A stretch of DNA of 19,782 nucleotides from a virus (taxonomy: Duplodnaviria; Heunggongvirae; Uroviricota; Caudoviricetes), in IMG/VR virus record IMGVR_UViG_638341196_000006. One strand, written 5' to 3'. The notes beneath the pieces are model-generated. The model saw nothing but the letters and a program-made list of their open reading frames with translations, did no database searches and was not told where the DNA came from. Each line of letters begins with the position of its first letter. Position 1 is the first letter of the stretch. Shown piece by piece: positions 1 through 11,049 of this stretch. The position numbers and the translations under genes were made by a program.

Positions 1-263
1 ATGAAAAAAAGAAATTTTAGCGCAGAGTTTAAACGCGAATCCGCTCAACTGGTTGTTGACCAGAAATACACGGTGGCAGATGCCGCCAAAGCTATGGATG
101 TTGGCCTTTCCACAATGACAAGATGGGTCAAACAACTGCGTGATGAGCGTCAGGGCAAAACACCAAAAGCCTCTCCGATAACACCAGAACAAATCGAAAT
201 ACGTAAGCTGAGGAAAAAGCTACAACGCATTGAAATGGAGAATGAAATATTAAAAAAGGCTAC
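1..263 (+). pseudogene. IS911 orfA, 5' portion, interrupted after the KKAT codon by IS30
   Basis: Reading frame from ATG at 1 continues into IS30 end sequence at 264; the native orfA continuation (gcgctcttgatgtcagactccctgaacagttctcgataa) resumes at about 1486. Confidence 0.8.
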
Positions 264-2391
<2,128 letters not shown>

Positions 2392-2611
2392 CCACTTCAT
2401 TTTGATATTTTCCAGCACCTCCGCCTTGGAGCTACCGGAGCAGTTGCGCAGGTCATCCGCACCATACAGAGGCGCTGGCATAATGGGAGCCTTATTTTCA
2501 GTAATCAGAAAGGAGGGTAATCGTTCTGGCTGTAACCATAATCATCTGCATGATTCTGGCTTACGTTTTTGCTGCGATTGTCTTTGTCTTTGAGAGTGGA
2601 AACCATATTTG

Positions 2612-3091
2612 CTACAGTTTCTGGTTTCTTTCCTTCAGTTTTTCTTTCAGTGTCTGCCCTGTTTCTGCAATGAATGGAATGCGGATTTCCATCTGGTAAC
2701 TGTCTGCGCCAGTCTTTCTGTTTGTGGTTAATACTTTCTGGAGGACGAGTCCGATTTTCTTTCCGTGAAACTCAGGTGCAACATATTTACTGACGGAAAC
2801 CATATGTTGCGTTAACTGCCCAATTCCTGTGCATCCCATCATGGCGTGAATAATGCTCGCCCCAAATTTATTTTCAGTGCCGTCATTCTTCTGAACACAA
2901 ACACTGAGATATTGGATTTTCCGTCCGTCGTCGGATTCTCCAGAAAACTCAATGAATCGGGCACCTTTTTCTGATTGCTTGAGTTCTGCTTCGGTGATGT
3001 TAATGATATGCGCACCCGTTTCGGTAATAAAACCACCTTGTCCGGCGGTCAGTGCTGATTCTTCGTTATAAGTAAAAATCACTTCATCCAT
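2612..3091 (-). CDS. hypothetical phage protein (159 aa) downstream of exo
   Basis: Intact ORF, stop-start adjacent to exo on the same strand; no motif I can name. Confidence 0.5.
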   Translation of the reverse strand: MDEVIFTYNEESALTAGQGGFITETGAHIINITEAELKQSEKGARFIEFSGESDDGRKIQYLSVCVQKNDGTENKFGASIIHAMMGCTGIGQLTQHMVSVSKYVAPEFHGKKIGLVLQKVLTTNRKTGADSYQMEIRIPFIAETGQTLKEKLKERNQKL

Positions 3092-3780
3092 TAGTTATTA
3101 ACCCCCCATTGTTCTCCAAATACAAAACCAATTTCCGCCAGTGCTTCGTCCATTTTGTCGATGAACTCCGGCACCATCTCATCAAAACTCGTCATGTACT
3201 TTTCATCCCGCTCGACCACGACATAATGCAGGCCTTCACGCTTCATGCGTGGGTCGTAGTTGGCGAAGTACCAGGCGTCCTTGTCTGTAACCCACATGCT
3301 GAATTGCACCTGGGCCATGTAAGCAGGCTTGATAGCGTCAAAGCCGCCAAGCCGGAACTTCATGAAGTCGCGGGAAGTGAAGGGGCATTTAAGCTCAAGG
3401 CCGTTACCGTCGCTGCATAAACCGTCGGGAGAGCAGGCGGTGCGCATGCTTTCGTCACGAAAAATTATTGGCGTTTCCGAGACGGTAACATCCGCGATAA
3501 ATTCGAAGATGGCACGGGCATCATCTTCGTATTGCTTTCCCCATGCGAGCGACTTAGCGTTAACTTCCGGTGCCACGCCGGTACAAACTTCAGCCAGCAG
3601 GGTGTGGAAGTATGAGATTTTTGTATCAGGCCATTTGCTGCCGGAACGTGGCTTTGCTATCACATTGTGAACTTCTGAAGCAGTGATAACACCGAGTCTC
3701 AGCTTGTGCCATCCATCATCGCCCTGGTCGAGGCTGGTAATATCCACGCCAGTTCGCTGGAGAATAATTTCTGGTGTCAT
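3091..3780 (-). CDS. exo: lambda-type exonuclease (Red-alpha / Exo)
   Basis: [11 protein letters not shown]...[26 protein letters not shown]...[21 protein letters not shown]...[10 protein letters not shown] is near-collinear with lambda Exo as I recall it. Confidence 0.9.
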
Positions 3781-4382
3781 GACACGGCCTCGCTGCTATT
3801 TTCCGTGGTGGCGTGAATTTTCGCTTCCGCCGTGGCCTTGTTTCTGGCAGCTTTCTTTTTGACAAAATCAAGCGTTTTGACAGCTTCTTCCTGACTGAGA
3901 TATTCATGTGATGCAATCGTGCGACGGAATGTTTTGGAACATAAGGGAAGCAGGTCATCCCATGTCTTGTTAATTTCGGTGATTGCCTGAGTGATCTCAT
4001 TGATAATCTCATCTGATGCGGGAGTGACGTCACGCTCAGGGATGTGATCAGCATTCAGGATGATACCTTCACCGGCCTGAGTGTTCAGGTAGTCGATAGC
4101 TGTATCCAGGCGATCGCGACGGGGCCAGTATTTGCTGGCGCGCTTAACAATGGCTTTTCTGGCCATTTCATCGGGGAAACTATCCCACGGGCTACTTCCT
4201 CCGTTATTTCCGGCTTTGCTGCACGCCCTGATGACCTCGATTTCCCTGTTGCTCATCTCTTCGGTCAGATAGTCGCCTTCGGATGTTTTTACGACACAAT
4301 AACCGCCAATGCGTGCGCCCCTGTCTACGAATGGGTTGTATTTGTGCGTGGGGGCGCAGTCAATACCGTTGGACTCGTAAAT
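3777..4382 (-). pseudogene. bet: bet / RecT-family recombinase, 5'-truncated by the IS600 junction
   Basis: C-terminal part ...ERDVTPASDEIINEITQAITEINKTWDDLLPLCSKTFRR resembles lambda Bet; the frame stays open upstream of the first ATG to the IS600 boundary (..YESNGIDC..GGYCVVKTSEGDYLTEE) with no start; overlaps exo by 4 bp. Confidence 0.75.
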
Positions 4383-4446
4383 TGAGGTAGCCTGAGTTTA
4401 ACGGACACTCCTTCCTGAAATAGAATGGCATCAGAAGGAGCTAATA

Positions 4447-4709
4447 ATGAGCAGAAAAACCCAACGTTACTCTAAAGAGTTCAAAGCCGAAGCTGTCAGA
4501 ACGGTTCTTGAAAATCAACTTTCGATCAGTGAAGGCGCTTCCCGATTATCCCTTCCTGAAGGCACTTTAGGACAATGGGTTACCGCCGCCAGAAAAGGAC
4601 TCGGTACTCCTGGTTCCCGCACGGTGGCTGAACTGGAATCTGAAATTCTGCAACTGCGTAAGGCGTTAAATGAAGCTCGCCTTGAGCGAGATATATTAAA
4701 AAAAGCAAC
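4447..4709 (+). pseudogene. IS600 orfA, interrupted after the KKAT codon by IS30
   Basis: Frame runs from ATG 4447 into the IS30 inverted repeat at 4710; native continuation (agcgtattttgcacaggagtcgctgaaaaatacgcgttaa) resumes at 5933. Confidence 0.8.
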
Positions 4710-5930
4710 TGTAGATTCAATTGGTCAACGCAACAGTTATGTGAAAACATGGGGTTGCGGAGGTTTTTTGAATGAGACGAACATTTACAGCAGAGGAAAA
4801 AGCCTCTGTTTTTGAACTATGGAAGAACGGAACAGGCTTCAGTGAAATAGCGAATATCCTGGGTTCAAAACCCGGAACGATCTTCACTATGTTAAGGGAT
4901 ACTGGCGGCATAAAACCCCATGAGCGTAAGCGGGCTGTAGCTCACCTGACACTGTCTGAGCGCGAGGAGATACGAGCTGGTTTGTCAGCCAAAATGAGCA
5001 TTCGTGCGATAGCTACTGCGCTGAATCGCAGTCCTTCGACGATCTCACGTGAAGTTCAGCGTAATCGGGGCAGACGCTATTACAAAGCTGTTGATGCTAA
5101 TAACCGAGCCAACAGAATGGCGAAAAGGCCAAAACCGTGCTTACTGGATCAAAATTTACCATTGCGAAAGCTTGTTCTGGAAAAGCTGGAGATGAAATGG
5201 TCTCCAGAGCAAATATCAGGATGGTTAAGGCGAACAAAACCACGTCAAAAAACGCTGCGAATATCACCTGAGACAATTTATAAAACGCTGTACTTTCGTA
5301 GCCGTGAAGCGCTACACCACCTGAATATACAGCATCTGCGACGGTCGCATAGCCTTCGCCATGGCAGGCGTCATACCCGCAAAGGCGAAAGAGGTACGAT
5401 TAACATAGTGAACGGAACACCAATTCACGAACGTTCCCGAAATATCGATAACAGACGCTCTCTGGGGCATTGGGAGGGCGATTTAGTCTCAGGTACAAAA
5501 AACTCTCATATAGCCACACTTGTAGACCGAAAATCACGTTATACGATCATCCTTAGACTCAGGGGCAAAGATTCTGTCTCAGTAAATCAGGCTCTTACCG
5601 ACAAATTCCTGAGTTTACCGTCAGAACTCAGAAAATCACTGACATGGGACAGAGGAATGGAACTGGCCAGACATCTAGAATTTACTGTCAGCACCGGCGT
5701 TAAAGTTTACTTCTGCGATCCTCAGAGTCCTTGGCAGCGGGGAACAAATGAGAACACAAATGGGCTAATTCGGCAGTACTTTCCTAAAAAGACATGTCTT
5801 GCCCAATATACTCAACATGAACTAGATCTGGTTGCTGCTCAGCTAAACAACAGACCGAGAAAGACACTGAAGTTCAAAACACCGAAAGAGATAATTGAAA
5901 GGGGTGTTGCATTGACAGATTGAATCTACA
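4710..5930 (+). mobile_element. IS30 copy 2 (1221 bp), inserted in IS600 with flanking AC duplication (4708-4709 and 5931-5932)
   Basis: Starts tgtagattcaattggtcaacgcaacag, ends ...gttgcattgacagattgaatctaca. Confidence 0.9.
4772..5923 (+). CDS. insI: IS30 transposase (383 aa)
   Basis: Same protein as 271-1422; SD ggagg 8 nt upstream of ATG. Confidence 0.9.
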   Translation: MRRTFTAEEKASVFELWKNGTGFSEIANILGSKPGTIFTMLRDTGGIKPHERKRAVAHLTLSEREEIRAGLSAKMSIRAIATALNRSPSTISREVQRNRGRRYYKAVDANNRANRMAKRPKPCLLDQNLPLRKLVLEKLEMKWSPEQISGWLRRTKPRQKTLRISPETIYKTLYFRSREALHHLNIQHLRRSHSLRHGRRHTRKGERGTINIVNGTPIHERSRNIDNRRSLGHWEGDLVSGTKNSHIATLVDRKSRYTIILRLRGKDSVSVNQALTDKFLSLPSELRKSLTWDRGMELARHLEFTVSTGVKVYFCDPQSPWQRGTNENTNGLIRQYFPKKTCLAQYTQHELDLVAAQLNNRPRKTLKFKTPKEIIERGVALTD

Positions 5931-6007
5931 ACAGCGTATTTTGCACAGGAGTCGCTGAAAAATACGCGTTAATCGAACAATGGCGACAACAATTTCCCAT
6001 TGAAGCG

Positions 6008-6826
6008 ATGTGTCAGGTATTTGGTGTATCCAGGAGCGGTTATTACAACCGGGTACAGCATGAACCCTCAGACAGAAAACAAAGTGATGAGCGGCTAAAA
6101 CTGGAGATTAAGGTGGCACATATCCGCACTCGCGAAACATATGGAACCCGGCGGCTCCAGACGGAGCTGGCAGAGAATGGCATCATCGTTGGTCGTGACC
6201 GACTGGCACGTCTTCGTAAGGAGCTAAGGCTACGCTGTAAGCAGAAACGCAAGTTCAGAGCGACTACGAACCCGAACCACAATCTGCCAGTTGCGCCAAA
6301 TCTGCTGAACCAGACGTTCGCTCCTACAGCACCAAATCAGGTCTGGGTGGCGGACCTGACGTATGTTGCCACACAGGAGGGATGGTTGTACCTCGCTGGC
6401 ATCAAAGATGTTTATACGTGCGAAATTGTCGGCTACGCCATGGGAGAGCGCATGACAAAAGAGCTGACAGGTAAAGCCCTGTTTATGGCGCTCAGGAGCC
6501 AGCGCCCACCTGCCGGGCTAATCCACCACTCTGATCGAGGTTCACAGTACTGCGCATACGATTACCGGGTCATACAGGAGCAGTTTGGTCTGAAAACATC
6601 AATGTCGCGTAAAGGTAACTGTTACGACAACGCTCCGATGGAAAGCTTCTGGGGAACGCTGAAAAATGAGAGCCTGAGCCACTATCGTTTTAATAACCGG
6701 GATGAAGCCATCTCAGTAATACGGGAATACATTGAGATTTTCTACAATCGTCAGCGTCGTCACTCTCGTCTGGGGAATATCTCCCCGGCAGCCTTCAGGG
6801 AAAAATATCATCAGATGGCTGCTTAA
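6008..6826 (+). CDS. IS600 orfB (DDE transposase domain)
   Basis: ...NQVWVADLTYVAT...HHSDRGSQYCA...RKGNCYDNAPMESF rve-type motifs. Confidence 0.8.
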   Translation: MCQVFGVSRSGYYNRVQHEPSDRKQSDERLKLEIKVAHIRTRETYGTRRLQTELAENGIIVGRDRLARLRKELRLRCKQKRKFRATTNPNHNLPVAPNLLNQTFAPTAPNQVWVADLTYVATQEGWLYLAGIKDVYTCEIVGYAMGERMTKELTGKALFMALRSQRPPAGLIHHSDRGSQYCAYDYRVIQEQFGLKTSMSRKGNCYDNAPMESFWGTLKNESLSHYRFNNRDEAISVIREYIEIFYNRQRRHSRLGNISPAAFREKYHQMAA

Positions 6827-8328
6827 AAAAAGAACAAATGGTAGTGTCCGCTATTGCCAGTACACCTCATTGACTTGATGAAATTGTGCACTTCAACCGA
6901 GGTTTGCAGCGGCGCGTTACTGAAGCCTTTAGGCCACACCCCGAACTTCTCTTTGTAGGTATGAGCGCACCATCCGTCACTCAGTGGCTTACCTGTCGCG
7001 TTGCGGTAATTCTGATAGCCCTTGATCTCACTCCACCACCGCTGTTTTTCCTCGCGGCTGTATTCGCGTTTCCCTTTGTTTACGCGAGAGAGTTTTCGAT
7101 CGCGGTCTGTTGCCACATCATCGCCACCAAGAGGACGAAACCCACATTTGGGACACATGTGTACACCAGCAGGCTTCATGAAGTGGCATTTGGGGCATTC
7201 TCTGGGAAGTTTTTCAGCTTTAACCTCGCCACCGCCAGCAGACGCTTTCATTCCGTCATTTTTGCCCGGCAGTTCGTCATACTCGATATCCTCGGGGAAA
7301 CCCAGCCGATGAACCGTGCCAGAATGGTCGAAAATCAACGCACGTTGTTTACCTGGGGCTGTACGTAACGCTCTACCTATGCACTGCAACCAACGGATTT
7401 CTGATTTTGTCGGACGGGCATAGATCAGGCAGCGAACATCGCTGTCAAATCCCGCAACCAGTACGCCGACGTTGACAATTATTTTGGTCACGCCCTCTTC
7501 AAAACGGCGAATGATGTCCTGTCGTTCATCATGGAGGGTATCTGCCGTCATCACCTCTGCGCCAATACCGGCCTGTAAAAACTCACGGGTAACAAAATTC
7601 GCATGCGCAACATTCACACAGAAGCAGATCGTCGGCAAATCCTCACCATTCTCAAGCCAGTTGCGAACGATATCGCCAACCAGATCCGAACTCCCCATGA
7701 TGGATGCGAGCTGCTCCTCGTTGTAATCCCGTCCAAATACGGTGTTACTGGTTTTTACGCCAGCCAGATCAGGCATTGAGGGGGCAAAAAACTCATAATC
7801 GCTCAGATCACCACGCTGAATAAGTTCACGAATCGTTGTAGGCTTGATCAGGCATTCGTAGTACTTCCCCATCCAGGCTGCGAACGGGGTACCGGAAAGT
7901 CCAAGAACCCTGATGTCTCTGTCCCGGATAACCTCAAGTAACGCACGACGCTTCATGTGTGCTTCATCGATGATCAGCAGATCGATGTTGTTAGGAAACT
8001 CACGACGGATCAGCGTGTCGGCACTGGCAATCTGAATCAGTCGTGACGGGTCATAGTTAGGGTGATCACGCCATACAAAACTGATTTCTTCCCACGGCAA
8101 ACCGTATTCGGTGAAACGTTCCGCTGTCTGGTTCAGCAGGATGGTGTACGGACAGACAAACATCACTCGCATACCACGTTCAACCATTCCGGCGGTGACG
8201 AATGCTGCAAGACCAGTTTTGCCAGAGCCAGTGGGTGCATACATCAGGTACGTGCGATGCTGTTTCCACTGGTGCCGCAGCTGGTTTAAACCGCGCTCCT
8301 GAGCAAAGTTTGGGATTATTTTCAGCAT
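6823..8328 (-). CDS. phage SF2 DEAD/DEAH-box DNA helicase with C-terminal zinc ribbon; the 3' end runs into the IS600 right end
   Basis: Walker A APTGSGKT, DEAH-like LIIDEAH, SAT-like GLSGTP, CPKCHF...CPKCGF Cys pairs; the last ~15 codons and the stop lie inside IS600 sequence (6826-6870). Confidence 0.8.
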   Translation of the reverse strand: MLKIIPNFAQERGLNQLRHQWKQHRTYLMYAPTGSGKTGLAAFVTAGMVERGMRVMFVCPYTILLNQTAERFTEYGLPWEEISFVWRDHPNYDPSRLIQIASADTLIRREFPNNIDLLIIDEAHMKRRALLEVIRDRDIRVLGLSGTPFAAWMGKYYECLIKPTTIRELIQRGDLSDYEFFAPSMPDLAGVKTSNTVFGRDYNEEQLASIMGSSDLVGDIVRNWLENGEDLPTICFCVNVAHANFVTREFLQAGIGAEVMTADTLHDERQDIIRRFEEGVTKIIVNVGVLVAGFDSDVRCLIYARPTKSEIRWLQCIGRALRTAPGKQRALIFDHSGTVHRLGFPEDIEYDELPGKNDGMKASAGGGEVKAEKLPRECPKCHFMKPAGVHMCPKCGFRPLGGDDVATDRDRKLSRVNKGKREYSREEKQRWWSEIKGYQNYRNATGKPLSDGWCAHTYKEKFGVWPKGFSNAPLQTSVEVHNFIKSMRCTGNSGHYHLFFF

Positions 8329-8708
8329 GACGCCCCCTTGCTACGTGATTTACCCGTTGCCGGGATCACGTCGATCTCATCGCTAACGTATTGATCCGGA
8401 TTACGTGAACAGCGCAGAAGCACGATACCAGGAATGCCGTATAGCTTGAGTCTGCGCAGTTTCAGTATTGAACGTGCCCGTGGTGACGCTCTGTCCACCT
8501 CGATCGCGCACCGTTCACCAGATGGGGCAACGACCATGATATCGACGAATCCGCGCTTACCGTTGCCCATATCAACCAGATAATTACGTTCGATCGCCAG
8601 TCCGGCATCACGCAATTTGGCAGCCAGCACATAATCAAACGTGACCTTGTCTTTTCCGGTGTAGAATTTGTTTCCGAGCAGGCTGATAACCACATGTTTG
8701 ATGAACAT
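8322..8708 (-). CDS. hypothetical protein, possibly a PD-(D/E)xK / VRR-NUC-like nuclease, translationally coupled to the helicase
   Basis: 128-aa ORF overlapping the helicase start by 7 bp; GFVDIMVVAPSGERCAIEVD resembles a nuclease core but the catalytic Lys is not evident; SD ggtgga upstream. Confidence 0.45.
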   Translation of the reverse strand: MFIKHVVISLLGNKFYTGKDKVTFDYVLAAKLRDAGLAIERNYLVDMGNGKRGFVDIMVVAPSGERCAIEVDRASPRARSILKLRRLKLYGIPGIVLLRCSRNPDQYVSDEIDVIPATGKSRSKGASC

Positions 8709-8890
8709 GGTACTATTTCCACCGTAATGGTTAGTATAATAACAATTTCTACAGAAACCATCTCACCCTATACAGTGATCTACCTAACCTATGGAGCTGC
8801 CTTCCTCTGGTAGTGCCCTTACAGGCACGGATGTTACAGATCTGCCCCCTTACCCCCTTCTTAGTAAAATTTCAAGTGCAATGGTTTAAT

Positions 8891-8905
8891 GTGAAATCAT
8901 TTCAC
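8891..8905. repeat. perfect 7-1-7 palindrome GTGAAATCATTTCAC in an intergenic gap of the leftward operon
   Basis: Read directly; between the 93-aa gene end and the 128-aa gene start. Confidence 0.3.
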
Positions 8906-8929
8906 AAAAAATAATCACCTTGATGAGAT

Positions 8930-9211
8930 CTATTCCTTCCGTATCGCTACTGGCGAAAGCATCCAGCCACGGCTGGCTCTCGCGTACTTCTGGACATACA
9001 CCCGTAACCGGGTGTTGGCGCTCCGTCTTGCCCTGTTGCCCTTCCTGAACGATACAGGCTCCTTGTCCCACTCTTCCTGGTACACTCTCGCGTACTCTGC
9101 TGCAATTTTTACCCTGGTGGTCGGGTCTAGCTGTAACAATTGCTCCTGTATCCAGTCCCGATCAGCATCACAGTACTGATCGGGCATAACCGTTTTGATT
9201 TGCCTGTTCAC
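8930..9211 (-). CDS. hypothetical phage protein (93 aa; true start may be the internal Met)
   Basis: ORF immediately downstream of the cro-like gene on the same strand; basic C-terminus; no recognisable domain. Confidence 0.4.
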   Translation of the reverse strand: MNRQIKTVMPDQYCDADRDWIQEQLLQLDPTTRVKIAAEYARVYQEEWDKEPVSFRKGNRARRSANTRLRVYVQKYARASRGWMLSPVAIRKE

Positions 9212-9233
9212 TCACACCTCCGATGGAGGGTTA

Positions 9234-9473
9234 TCAGGCTGTTTGCCTTACATGAAGCGGAATACCATCTTCCATGTTTAGGTAGTCATGCGGGTTTAGT
9301 TCATGGGGAGTTACATTCCAGTCTGTAGCTTTTGCCCATTCAATGGCTTTCCGCCCCTGAGGCATGTATCTCCCTGTAATAACCCCACTGACAAATCCCT
9401 GAGAAACTCCAACAATCGCCGCAAAATCGGCTTGTCTGATAGAGCTTTGTCTCAAGTACTCGTCAAGAGTCAT
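9234..9473 (-). CDS. Cro-like HTH regulator, divergent from cI
   Basis: 79-aa protein with helix-turn-helix QADFAAIVGVSQGFVSGVITG; divergent from cI with a strong promoter directly upstream. Confidence 0.6.
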   Translation of the reverse strand: MTLDEYLRQSSIRQADFAAIVGVSQGFVSGVITGRYMPQGRKAIEWAKATDWNVTPHELNPHDYLNMEDGIPLHVRQTA

Positions 9474-9499
9474 AGAGATCCTCCCATTTCAATTTTCCG

Positions 9500-9527
9500 A
9501 TATTAGCTTACCTGATTTAAATGTCAA
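9500..9527 (-). promoter_or_regulatory. pR-like promoter for the cro-like operon (-35 TTGACA at 9522-9527, 16-bp spacer, -10 TAATAT at 9500-9505 on the minus strand)
   Basis: Near-consensus sigma-70 hexamers read on the reverse complement; ATG of the cro-like gene is at 9473. Confidence 0.5.
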
Positions 9528-9540
9528 TAGGCTAGCTATT
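9526..9540. promoter_or_regulatory. candidate operator: imperfect palindrome AATAGgctagCTATT between the divergent -35 elements
   Basis: Inverted repeat read directly; position is typical of an OR-type operator. Confidence 0.3.
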
Positions 9541-9568
9541 TGATAAATATTTGTGTTGCTAATAAAAT
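9540..9568 (+). promoter_or_regulatory. pRM-like promoter for cI (-35 TTGATA 9540-9545, 17-bp spacer, -10 TAAAAT 9563-9568)
   Basis: Hexamers read directly; predicted start is only a few nt before the cI ATG at 9579, i.e. a near-leaderless message as for lambda cI. Confidence 0.4.
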
Positions 9569-9578
9569 CGGAGGCACT

Positions 9579-10298
9579 ATGACGAAGAAAATTACAATTA
9601 CTGACAAAGACATCCAGAACGCTGAACGACTGCGCAAAATCTGGGATGAAAAACGGAAACAGCTATCCCTAAGCCAGGAAAAAGCCGCAGATATCCTCGG
9701 CTTCAAAACGCAGGGGGCTGTTAGTCAGTTATTGAACGCAAAAATTGCGTTAAATACTGAAAATACCCTTAAGTTTGCGGCTTTATTACAGGTTCCTGCG
9801 GAAGAAATTAATCCAGATCTGAGTGATTTGTTACGCAGTATTCGTACCCACACACCGGGAAACAGGCGTAACCTGTTCGAGAAATATTACGAATATCCGT
9901 TACTCTCCTGCGTACAGGCTGGAGCTTTCTCAATGGATGATTTTTCGTACACCGCAAAGGATGCGATTAAGTGGATCTCCACCACCACAAAAGCCAGTGA
10001 CAGGTCGTTCTGGCTGGAGGTCAAGGGGCATTCAATGACCGCGCCGCAGGGTGGTAAACCCAGTTTCCCCGAAGGGATGCTGATACTCGTTGACCCTGAG
10101 CGGGAGATTGAGGATGGCGATTTTTGCGTGGCCCGAATGAATGGCGATGAATTCACCTTCAAACGATTCATTCGTGAGAGCGGTAAAGCGTACCTGGAGC
10201 CACTCAACCCACGATTCGACATGATTGAGTGTAACGAAAACTGCCAGTTTGTCGGAAAGGTCATAAAGTCGCAGTGGAATGATGAGACTTTTGATTGA
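9579..10298 (+). CDS. cI: CI-type prophage repressor (HTH N-domain plus LexA/S24-like autocleavage domain)
   Basis: ...[21 protein letters not shown]... HTH; C-terminal ...[37 protein letters not shown]...GDEFTFKRF... is near-collinear with lambda CI; I place the start at ATG 9579 rather than the track's TTG at 9540. Confidence 0.9.
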
Positions 10299-10419
10299 AC
10301 TCACAGGATGATATCAATAACCTTGCAGGGAGGCTATTTTATTTCCTTTTTCAGCGAAAAATCTCCGAGAACCCTCGCCCAATGCGGGCGGGGAGCAGTC
10401 GCAATCAAGTGAGCCATAA

Positions 10420-10590
10420 ATGAACAAAGACAAATCCTTGACACAACAAGTGGAAGAAATACTTAGCAAGCAAAAAGTTAGCGAGCAAGGAAAAATGATT
10501 CAATCATTAAAGAACATGGGCTTGATCAACAAGCCTGTTTTTACTTTGGCTTATGGACCAGATATTACAACCTGCCAAATGCACCAATAA
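10420..10590 (+). CDS. small hypothetical ORF (56 aa) downstream of cI, below the ORF-track cutoff
   Basis: ATG 10420 to TAA 10588-10590 (MNKDKSLTQQVEEILSKQKVSEQGKMIQSLKNMGLINKPVFTLAYGPDITTCQMHQ), immediately followed by a strong terminator; weak SD. Confidence 0.3.
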   Translation: MNKDKSLTQQVEEILSKQKVSEQGKMIQSLKNMGLINKPVFTLAYGPDITTCQMHQ

Positions 10591-10592
10591 CA

Positions 10593-10620
10593 AAACCCGG
10601 CCTTGGTGCCGGGTTTTGTT
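10593..10620. terminator. bidirectional rho-independent terminator (stem cccggc/gccggg, A-run upstream, T-run downstream)
   Basis: aaaacccggccttggtgccgggttttgttt; sits between the convergent cI-side operon and hicB. Confidence 0.7.
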
Positions 10621-10704
10621 TGCCTCCTGCTCGCCCCACCATTTACCAGTGCGCCGTAAATTCCCCATTCTTCGGCGGTGAGGATGTCAAAGACGAAGGG
10701 AACA

Positions 10705-11049
10705 TTAAGCCCCTGTGTGATGGTTGACTTCTTTTTCCAGCGCCTTATTAACAAAGGCGTTCAGTGATAAATCTTCTTCCATCGCCATTTCAGCGACCCG
10801 ACGATGCAGTTCTGGATCAAGTCTGACGTTAAACACACCTTTAAACGGGGTATCAGGCTCCTTTCCATCCTCCACACAAGACTGTAAATACAGCTCAACC
10901 GATGTCTTAAACTCCTGTTCCAGTTCAGCTAATGTAGAAGCCTCATAAGTTACCAGGTCTCGAATAAACGCCAGTTTTCCGTACAGGATATTATTTTCAA
11001 AATCTGGTTCTACTGTACCTAAATATCCTTTATATTTTAGATGATTCAT
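10705..11049 (-). CDS. hicB: HicB-family antitoxin (N-terminal HicB fold plus C-terminal ribbon-helix-helix)
   Basis: 114 aa; C-terminal ...LDPELHRRVAEMAMEEDLSLNAFVNKALEKEV is RHH-like; 4-bp overlap with the upstream toxin gene. Confidence 0.8.
   Translation of the reverse strand: MNHLKYKGYLGTVEPDFENNILYGKLAFIRDLVTYEASTLAELEQEFKTSVELYLQSCVEDGKEPDTPFKGVFNVRLDPELHRRVAEMAMEEDLSLNAFVNKALEKEVNHHTGA

Follow-up and report, generated by a model that had tools for sequence, protein, structure and literature searches.

The DNA analysed here, called the window throughout, is the full 19,782-nt stretch of IMG/VR record IMGVR_UViG_638341196_000006. It is 100% identical over 18.3 kb to AAMJ02000007.1, and AAMJ is Shigella dysenteriae 1012, a draft genome listed in a table as 189 contigs (PMC2974192). 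Our subject is a copy of the insertion sequence (IS) IS600 that joins the 3’ part of a recT gene to the 3’ end of a helicase gene within a prophage. Loci fetched for comparison are designated by L-numbers. The features at the two junctions of this IS600 are:

2612-3091, minus strand: ssb-like phage gene, 159 amino acids (aa), annotated as a single-strand DNA binding protein in matching phages
3091-3780, minus strand: exo, intact, 229 aa, YqaJ/lambda-Exo type (PF09588, E=7e-28), 99% identity to phage exo
3777-4382, minus strand: 3’ part of recT, codons 116-316 plus stop, assigned from a partial Pfam RecT match and from comparison of its translation with a 316-aa reference
4380-4382: left flank triplet AAT, one of the two halves of the 3-bp duplication made when IS600 inserted into recT; intact recT has a single AAT at this site
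4383-6869, plus strand: IS600, in two parts (4383-4709 and 5931-6869), assigned from 99.7% identity to annotated IS600, from its end sequences and from its open reading frames (ORFs)
4710-5930, plus strand: IS30 nested in IS600, 1221 bp, with a 383-aa transposase ORF at 4772-5923 and an AC duplication at 4708-09 and 5931-32
6870-6872: right flank triplet TTG, present as a single copy in the intact helicase gene
6823-8328, minus strand: helicase-IS600 fusion ORF, 501 aa, with Pfam ResIII, DEAD and Helicase_C matches, delimited by C-terminal comparison with a 506-aa protein

The ORF on the left flank retains 201 codons, the C-terminal part of a RecT-family gene that has 316 when intact; codons 1-115, with the start codon, are missing. 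It matches Pfam PF03837 with E=3.9e-14 (53.1 bits, cut-off 24), and the match covers only positions 106-177 of the 198-position profile, consistent with an N-terminal truncation. In the original prediction, made from the letters of the window, this gene was a truncated bet: the loss of the N-terminal part and start codon stands, but the gene name does not. RecT is its only Pfam match and matching phage records annotate RecT; on these two grounds, the annealing gene appears to be of RecT type, a functional counterpart of lambda bet and not Bet itself. A Pfam search with the neighbouring ssb-like protein (2612-3091) returned no match. On the right flank, residues 1-486 of the helicase ORF are identical to those of an intact 506-aa DEAD/DEAH protein save for substitutions at residues 113 and 261. 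Residues 487-501 and the stop codon are encoded inside IS600, so the frame ends within the right end of the element, as had been predicted, with 15 IS600-encoded residues replacing the 20 C-terminal residues of the native helicase.

The left end of IS600 reads TGAGGTAGCC, with its first base at 4383, and its right end reads ...ACACCTCA, with its last base at 6869. The element and its flanks had been correctly recognised from the letters, with the right end placed about one base too far out and the nested IS30 unmentioned. The whole element of 2487 bp is made up of 1264 bp of IS600, 1221 bp of IS30 and the 2-bp AC duplication of IS30. Once IS30 and one AC copy are removed, the remaining 1264 bp have TG...CA ends and are 99.7% identical to the RefSeq-annotated IS600 copies in L002. 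The inserted element agrees with IS30 in its length of 1221 bp, its one 383-aa ORF and its AC/AC flanks; a 2-bp target duplication is typical of IS30, which also shows a preference for hot spots (PMC9333248), near-palindromic in sequence. Whereas orfB of the window IS600 is intact (6008-6826, 272 aa, rve domains), orfA is cut by IS30 at its A7G slippery region, an A-rich frameshift window. Because the interruption falls at the frameshift window, no OrfAB fusion would be expected from this copy, which is probably unable to make its own OrfAB transposase.

The flanks of the window IS600 differ, AAT at 4380-4382 and TTG at 6870-6872, and mapping of the ends against annotated IS600 yielded no 3-bp direct repeat, in line with what had first been noticed. 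The 3-bp rule itself is illustrated by two clean insertions, one in recT of CP026836.1 (TAC/TAC) and one in L002 (GTG/GTG). Matching flanks are kept in 2 of the 11 distinct IS600 copies of the fetched loci; mismatched flanks are therefore the norm in these loci.

In intact relatives, the two flanks are found apart. Over 2551-4382, the left flank matches the ssb-exo-recT region of many Shiga toxin (Stx)-converting phages at 99% identity, and in the same Stx-type phages the helicase-cro-cI region matches the right flank at 97.7%. In every phage record common to the top-25 lists of both flanks (NC_049917/MN067333, LC645417-22 and LC645451), the two lie about 9.6 kb apart on opposite strands, and NC_049917 is annotated in the native order primase-helicase-...-cro / cI-...-kil-gam-recT-exo-ssb. 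Exact-protein look-ups with the identical exo and the cognate primase led to copies of this prophage that are unrearranged: CP026875.1, QWSH01000121 and AASZXS010000123 (L024, L030, L031; 99.6-99.8% identity). There, the flanks are 7.2 kb apart, again on opposite strands, in the order primase-helicase-...-cro / cI-HicAB-Rha-kil-gam-recT-exo-ssb-abc2-...-int, recT and exo sharing the strand of int. Thus, the two flanks do come from non-contiguous DNA, and the argument first made from the lambda layout, that exo and its partner should lie on the strand of int, is borne out by the prophage’s own relatives. No helicase-recT adjacency was present among the phage records in the listed rows of both flank searches, which rules out a native mosaic phage order. 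TTG occurs once in the intact helicase gene and AAT once in intact recT at the breakpoints. Relative to the unrearranged relatives, in phages and prophage copies alike, the bounded segment is reversed.

These strand relationships bear directly on the simplest account of the mismatched flanks, an IS600-mediated adjacent deletion between helicase and recT without any inversion. Mismatched flanks alone are compatible with such a deletion, and the IS1-bounded loss at 12782-13549 shows that deletions do occur here. However, a deletion would keep the orientation of the flanks, which are on opposite strands in all intact relatives; the genes supposedly lost (cro, cI, HicAB and Rha) are present to the right of the helicase in the window; and the N-terminal part of recT (recT-N) is found beside a second IS600 in sister genomes, as described below. 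The strand relationships in phages and unrearranged prophages refute a simple deletion, to which we attach practically no probability.

The second half of the rearrangement is preserved in rearranged sister genomes (CP027027.1, PSSP01000001.1, UYIS01000022.1, AKNA01000038.1 and AFFZ01000056.1). In these, the helicase-cI-Rha block extends via kil and gam to a 116-aa RecT N-terminal ORF, which ends at a second IS600. This second copy is oppositely oriented, and its right end is followed by AAT and GTCCTTCTCGTAAAC, which is the recT sequence after AAT in the intact gene. The reciprocal junction (IS600 right end, AAT, recT 5’ part) was observed in L003, L004, L006, L007, L008, L016 and L017, and two inverted IS600 copies bounding the segment were seen in L003, L004, L006, L007 and L008. 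In CP027027.1, a complete genome, the sequence is continuous from recT-N through IS600 and Ea22 to ORF6N-Exc-Int-ipaH. The two AAT halves are thus split between the left end of the window IS600 and the right end of the second copy. The target duplication of the IS600 in recT therefore exists, but divided between two copies, which is the textbook signature of inversion between inverted IS copies; where the original prediction had allowed for deletion or inversion, the recT 5’ part beside a second, inverted IS600 with the matching AAT points specifically to inversion. In L004 and L007, where the second copy is complete, its left end meets CTT and then the abc2 3’ part, beyond which lie DUF2737 and Ea22/DUF551. 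IS30 occupies the same position in both IS600 copies of the window lineage; in the second copy of L004 and L007, it has the opposite orientation. Altogether, the window lineage has four junctions: AAT-recT-C (the C-terminal part of recT) on the left and TTG-helicase on the right of the first copy, AAT-recT-N on the right and CTT-abc2-3’ on the left of the second.

As the source is a draft genome of 189 contigs (PMC2974192) and IS600 is multicopy, contigs misjoined through the repeated element might have produced the helicase-recT connection. Yet 13 contigs, complete chromosomes among them, carry the same fusion ORF, which NCBI names 'MULTISPECIES ... [Shigella]', in identical surrounding order (CP027027.1; PSSP01000001.1, 5.1 Mb). 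The presence of the same junction in complete genomes rules out misassembly, and the likelihood that we assign to it is negligible.

The TTG-helicase junction appears to be older than the split of recT. The features that bear on this lie at the start of the window:

1-2399, plus strand: IS911, cut by the window start, its right end at 2399 adjoining the abc2 5’ remnant; 99.8-100% identity to the RefSeq-annotated IS911 in L002
264-1483, minus strand: IS30 in IS911, with a 2-bp AC duplication
2400-2481, minus strand: 5’ remnant of abc2 (anti-RecBCD); the window from 2400 onward aligns to phage TL-2011a from 4280 onward (abc2 coding sequence 4065-4361)

In CP026836.1, a single IS30-free IS600 lies at the helicase junction: its right end adjoins TTG and the truncated helicase gene (helicase’) as in the window, its left end adjoins CTT and the abc2 3’ part, the helicase points toward int, and the same IS911/abc2-5’ junction lies at the far end. 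CP026836.1 also carries the independent IS600 in recT with clean TAC/TAC flanks. In the sister genomes, the abc2 3’ remnant adjoins the second IS600, L004 position 1758 aligning to TL-2011a 4190, and 89 bp between the two abc2 remnants are missing. abc2 is therefore split, with its two parts at the extremes of the rearranged region and in opposite orientations. These junctions indicate that the helicase-IS600 junction arose earlier, from inversion of the whole helicase-to-abc2 block, a stage that CP026836.1 preserves. The exact primase protein of the prophage is on record only in unrearranged lineages, suggesting loss of the helicase 3’ end and primase; these were probably lost through the adjacent IS911.

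In strain 1012, one further event has affected the locus. The relevant features are:

12043-12781, plus strand: Rha’, cut by IS1
12782-13549, plus strand: IS1, 768 bp, no target duplication
13550-16659, plus strand: block of truncated ORF6N (ORF6N’), antirepressor and integrase

Through IS1, Rha is linked at about codon 246 to the beginning of the first ORF6N gene, both genes being truncated. An exact-protein look-up with the truncated ORF6N matched the source genome alone. At this site, CP027027.1 has about 9.1 kb containing kil, gam, recT-N, the second IS600, IS911::IS30, abc2-3’, Ea22/DUF551, further IS elements and DUF4222. An IS1-bounded deletion of about 9.1 kb relative to CP027027.1 thus appears to have removed the second IS600 and recT-N from this locus in strain 1012, and because the reciprocal junction went with it, the window alone shows one IS600 with mismatched flanks.

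Together, these results make it very probable that an inversion took place inside a decaying, Stx-phage-like lambdoid prophage of S. dysenteriae 1012 and that the window IS600 marks one of its two end-points. The junctions show that an IS600 inserted into recT and duplicated AAT, and that another IS600 already linked the truncated helicase (TTG, right end) to the abc2 3’ part (CTT, left end) as a result of the prior helicase-to-abc2 inversion. A homologous crossover between these two inverted copies, anywhere in the 1.3-2.5 kb that they share as IS600 (and IS30) sequence, would then have produced a second inversion. This would have returned the helicase’-cI-recT-N block to its native orientation relative to int and left recT-C/exo/ssb/abc2-5’ stranded in inverted orientation on the far side of the helicase. 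The helicase 3’ end and primase were probably lost to a deletion associated with IS911 and, in strain 1012, the IS1-bounded deletion would then have taken the second IS600 and recT-N. Two successive inversions and an IS1-bounded deletion, not a single event, are needed to explain the window.

The four junctions are also exactly those predicted by one-step intramolecular transposition, in which the IS600 at the helicase-abc2 junction attacked recT on the same chromosome and generated the second inverted copy, the inversion and the split AAT together. The IS30 at the same position in both IS600 copies of the window lineage is what would be expected if a 2.5-kb composite had been copied, and recT lies about 7 kb from the donor copy and was hit independently at the TAC site in CP026836.1, suggesting local hopping. 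However, IS3-family elements move by copy-out/paste-in via a circular intermediate, which would be expected to give simple insertions and not replicative inversions. Ordinary transposition of the composite, with homologous recombination afterwards, accounts for the shared IS30 just as well, and the opposite orientation of IS30 in the second copy of L004 and L007 indicates that the composites are not simple copies. We therefore consider one-step transposition unlikely, although it is the strongest of the alternatives. Homologous recombination between two copies is favoured because of the copy-out/paste-in mode of this family, the literature on IS inversions in Shigella and the other recombinant elements in the region, such as the chimera in CP026824.1 described below. 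In S. flexneri, IS-mediated inversions have been described, one of them attributed to IS600, as has a re-inversion that brought colinearity back after an earlier inversion (PMC1550401).

Several points weigh against the history proposed here. The final structure fits homologous recombination and one-step intramolecular transposition alike, and the immediate precursor predicted by the former, an IS600 in recT with AAT on both sides, was seen in no genome examined. The second IS600 is absent from the locus in the window’s own genome, and the inversion is read from the sister genomes. The earlier helicase-abc2 event is reconstructed from one junction and the split abc2, not from both junctions: the TTG partner (helicase 3’ end/primase and TTG beside an IS600 left end) was not found among all contigs encoding the exact primase. 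Partners of the TTG and CTT flanks were likewise not found in this primase-based search, absence from the index being no proof.

Other loci carry their own recombinant or decaying versions of this region. In CP026824.1 (L016 3541-5963), the second 'IS600' is a chimera of an IS911 left part, IS30 and an IS600 right part, which indicates that recombination may also have passed through the nested IS30 copies. In AFFZ01000112.1 (L028 6913), from another Shigella assembly, the right end of the recT-C-linked IS600::IS30 is joined not to the helicase but to the end of an autotransporter gene of the SPATE (serine protease autotransporters of Enterobacteriaceae) type, which looks like another IS600-mediated exchange. 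In CP026875.1 (L032 ~14000-19800), two inverted IS600 bracket portal and large-terminase-like genes with flanks CAT/ATG and TTT/AAA, each pair being reverse-complementary; a simple two-copy inversion does not fit these flanks. Even the 'unrearranged' copies in L024 and L030 (9055-10004) are damaged: recT is frameshifted past residue ~193, and part of ssb-abc2-DUF2737 has been deleted. Decay is under way in all lineages of this prophage, by different routes.

The nested IS30 elements show a pattern of their own. IS30 lies at the homologous orfA position, the A-rich frameshift window, in both IS911 and IS600, with the same AC duplication. We compared the resident IS911 copy between window 264-1483, L003 16846-18066 and L023 11391-12559: with the same flanks throughout, it lacks IS30 in CP026836.1, has it in antisense orientation in the window and in UYIS01000022.1, and has it in sense orientation in CP027027.1. 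This would reflect either independent insertions at one dinucleotide or flipping in place. The IS911::IS30 and IS600::IS30 junction sequences, or near-identical ones, each occur in about 1,200-1,300 of 5,426 complete E. coli genomes, counts which may overlap. Either the composites are ancient and widely spread, or IS30 has a hot spot at this site; an IS911 interrupted by IS30 is annotated in E. coli K-12 (insN / insI / insO). It is conceivable, though a long shot, that IS30 truly prefers the slippery window in IS3-family elements (IS911, IS600) and that one IS family can inactivate another in this way.

The helicase’-to-recT-N block is seen in both orientations relative to int, in CP026836.1 and in the window lineage. 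We also considered, separately from the IS30 hot-spot idea, that the ~7-kb helicase’-cro-cI-HicAB-Rha-gam-recT-N block bounded by inverted IS600 flips recurrently; this is a long shot. If true, flipping might alter expression of the immunity/HicAB module or of its neighbours and would constitute an IS-based invertible switch instead of a one-off accident.

The remaining features of the window lie between the helicase and the integrase:

8322-12781: immunity region, in native orientation relative to int
From 8322, minus strand: 128-aa gene of the immunity region
9234-9473, minus strand: cro-like gene
9579-10298, plus strand: cI
10705-11300, minus strand: HicB/HicA toxin-antitoxin pair, between cI and Rha
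14523-15305, plus strand: ORF6N/P22_AR_C antirepressor
15586-16659, plus strand: lambda-type integrase

In the gene calls of the source genome, HicB is shortened, with 43 aa against 114 aa in sister genomes. About 80 bp past the integrase (window 16660-17222, breakpoint about 16740-16744), the DNA corresponds to the ipaH end of a different prophage in a genome of enteroinvasive E. coli (EIEC) O121 (L002), and the same int adjoins ibs/mdtABC in CP026875.1 and CP026836.1. The int-proximal end may thus reflect either a further rearrangement or an alternative integration context.

The prophage of strain 1012 has no primase, nin, Q, lysis or structural genes in place after the helicase; what it retains, alongside an ipaH effector gene, is cI, cro, HicAB, two antirepressor genes and the integrase. 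With recT split and its 5’ part deleted at the locus, the helicase short of 20 residues, and primase, nin and late genes not following the helicase, the prophage is a remnant, and it is a reasonable inference that it is recombination- and replication-defective, as had been anticipated. Elements, mechanism and outcome are each familiar from Shigella, and we see here routine genome scrambling with no new mechanism. The specific history is probably undescribed but unsurprising, the recT, helicase and abc2 junctions not being described in the literature as far as checked. Its value is that of a worked example, in which an IS copy with mismatched flanks is resolved into a history of, putatively, two nested inversions and two deletions by means of the reciprocal junction in sister genomes. 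It also illustrates how IS600, IS911, IS30 and IS1 jointly dismantled a Shigella prophage while sparing the repressor, HicAB, the integrase and the adjacent ipaH.

Compared with known systems, the window IS600 is the same element as in an ordinary IS600 (IS3 family) insertion (1264 bp, TG...CA ends, orfA/orfB), but it differs in its AAT/TTG flanks and in the nested IS30 that cuts orfA. Compared with the lambda Red (exo-bet-gam) and Rac RecET modules, the unrearranged prophage has a lambdoid early-left operon arrangement, gam-recT-exo on the strand of int, and its Exo is of the YqaJ/lambda-Exo type. Unlike in lambda Red, the annealing protein belongs to the RecT family (PF03837) and is not lambda Bet and, unlike in both systems, the module of the window is split, with recT-C and exo apart from gam and recT-N. 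The closest parallel in mechanism is provided by the inversions between S. flexneri 5b 8401 and 2a 301, which involve IS1, IS4, IS629 and IS600 (PMC1550401): there as here, inverted multicopy IS elements act as portable homology and leave mismatched target duplications, and an inversion followed by a re-inversion restores colinearity. The difference is one of scale, about 7 kb within one prophage remnant here as against tens to hundreds of kb in S. flexneri.

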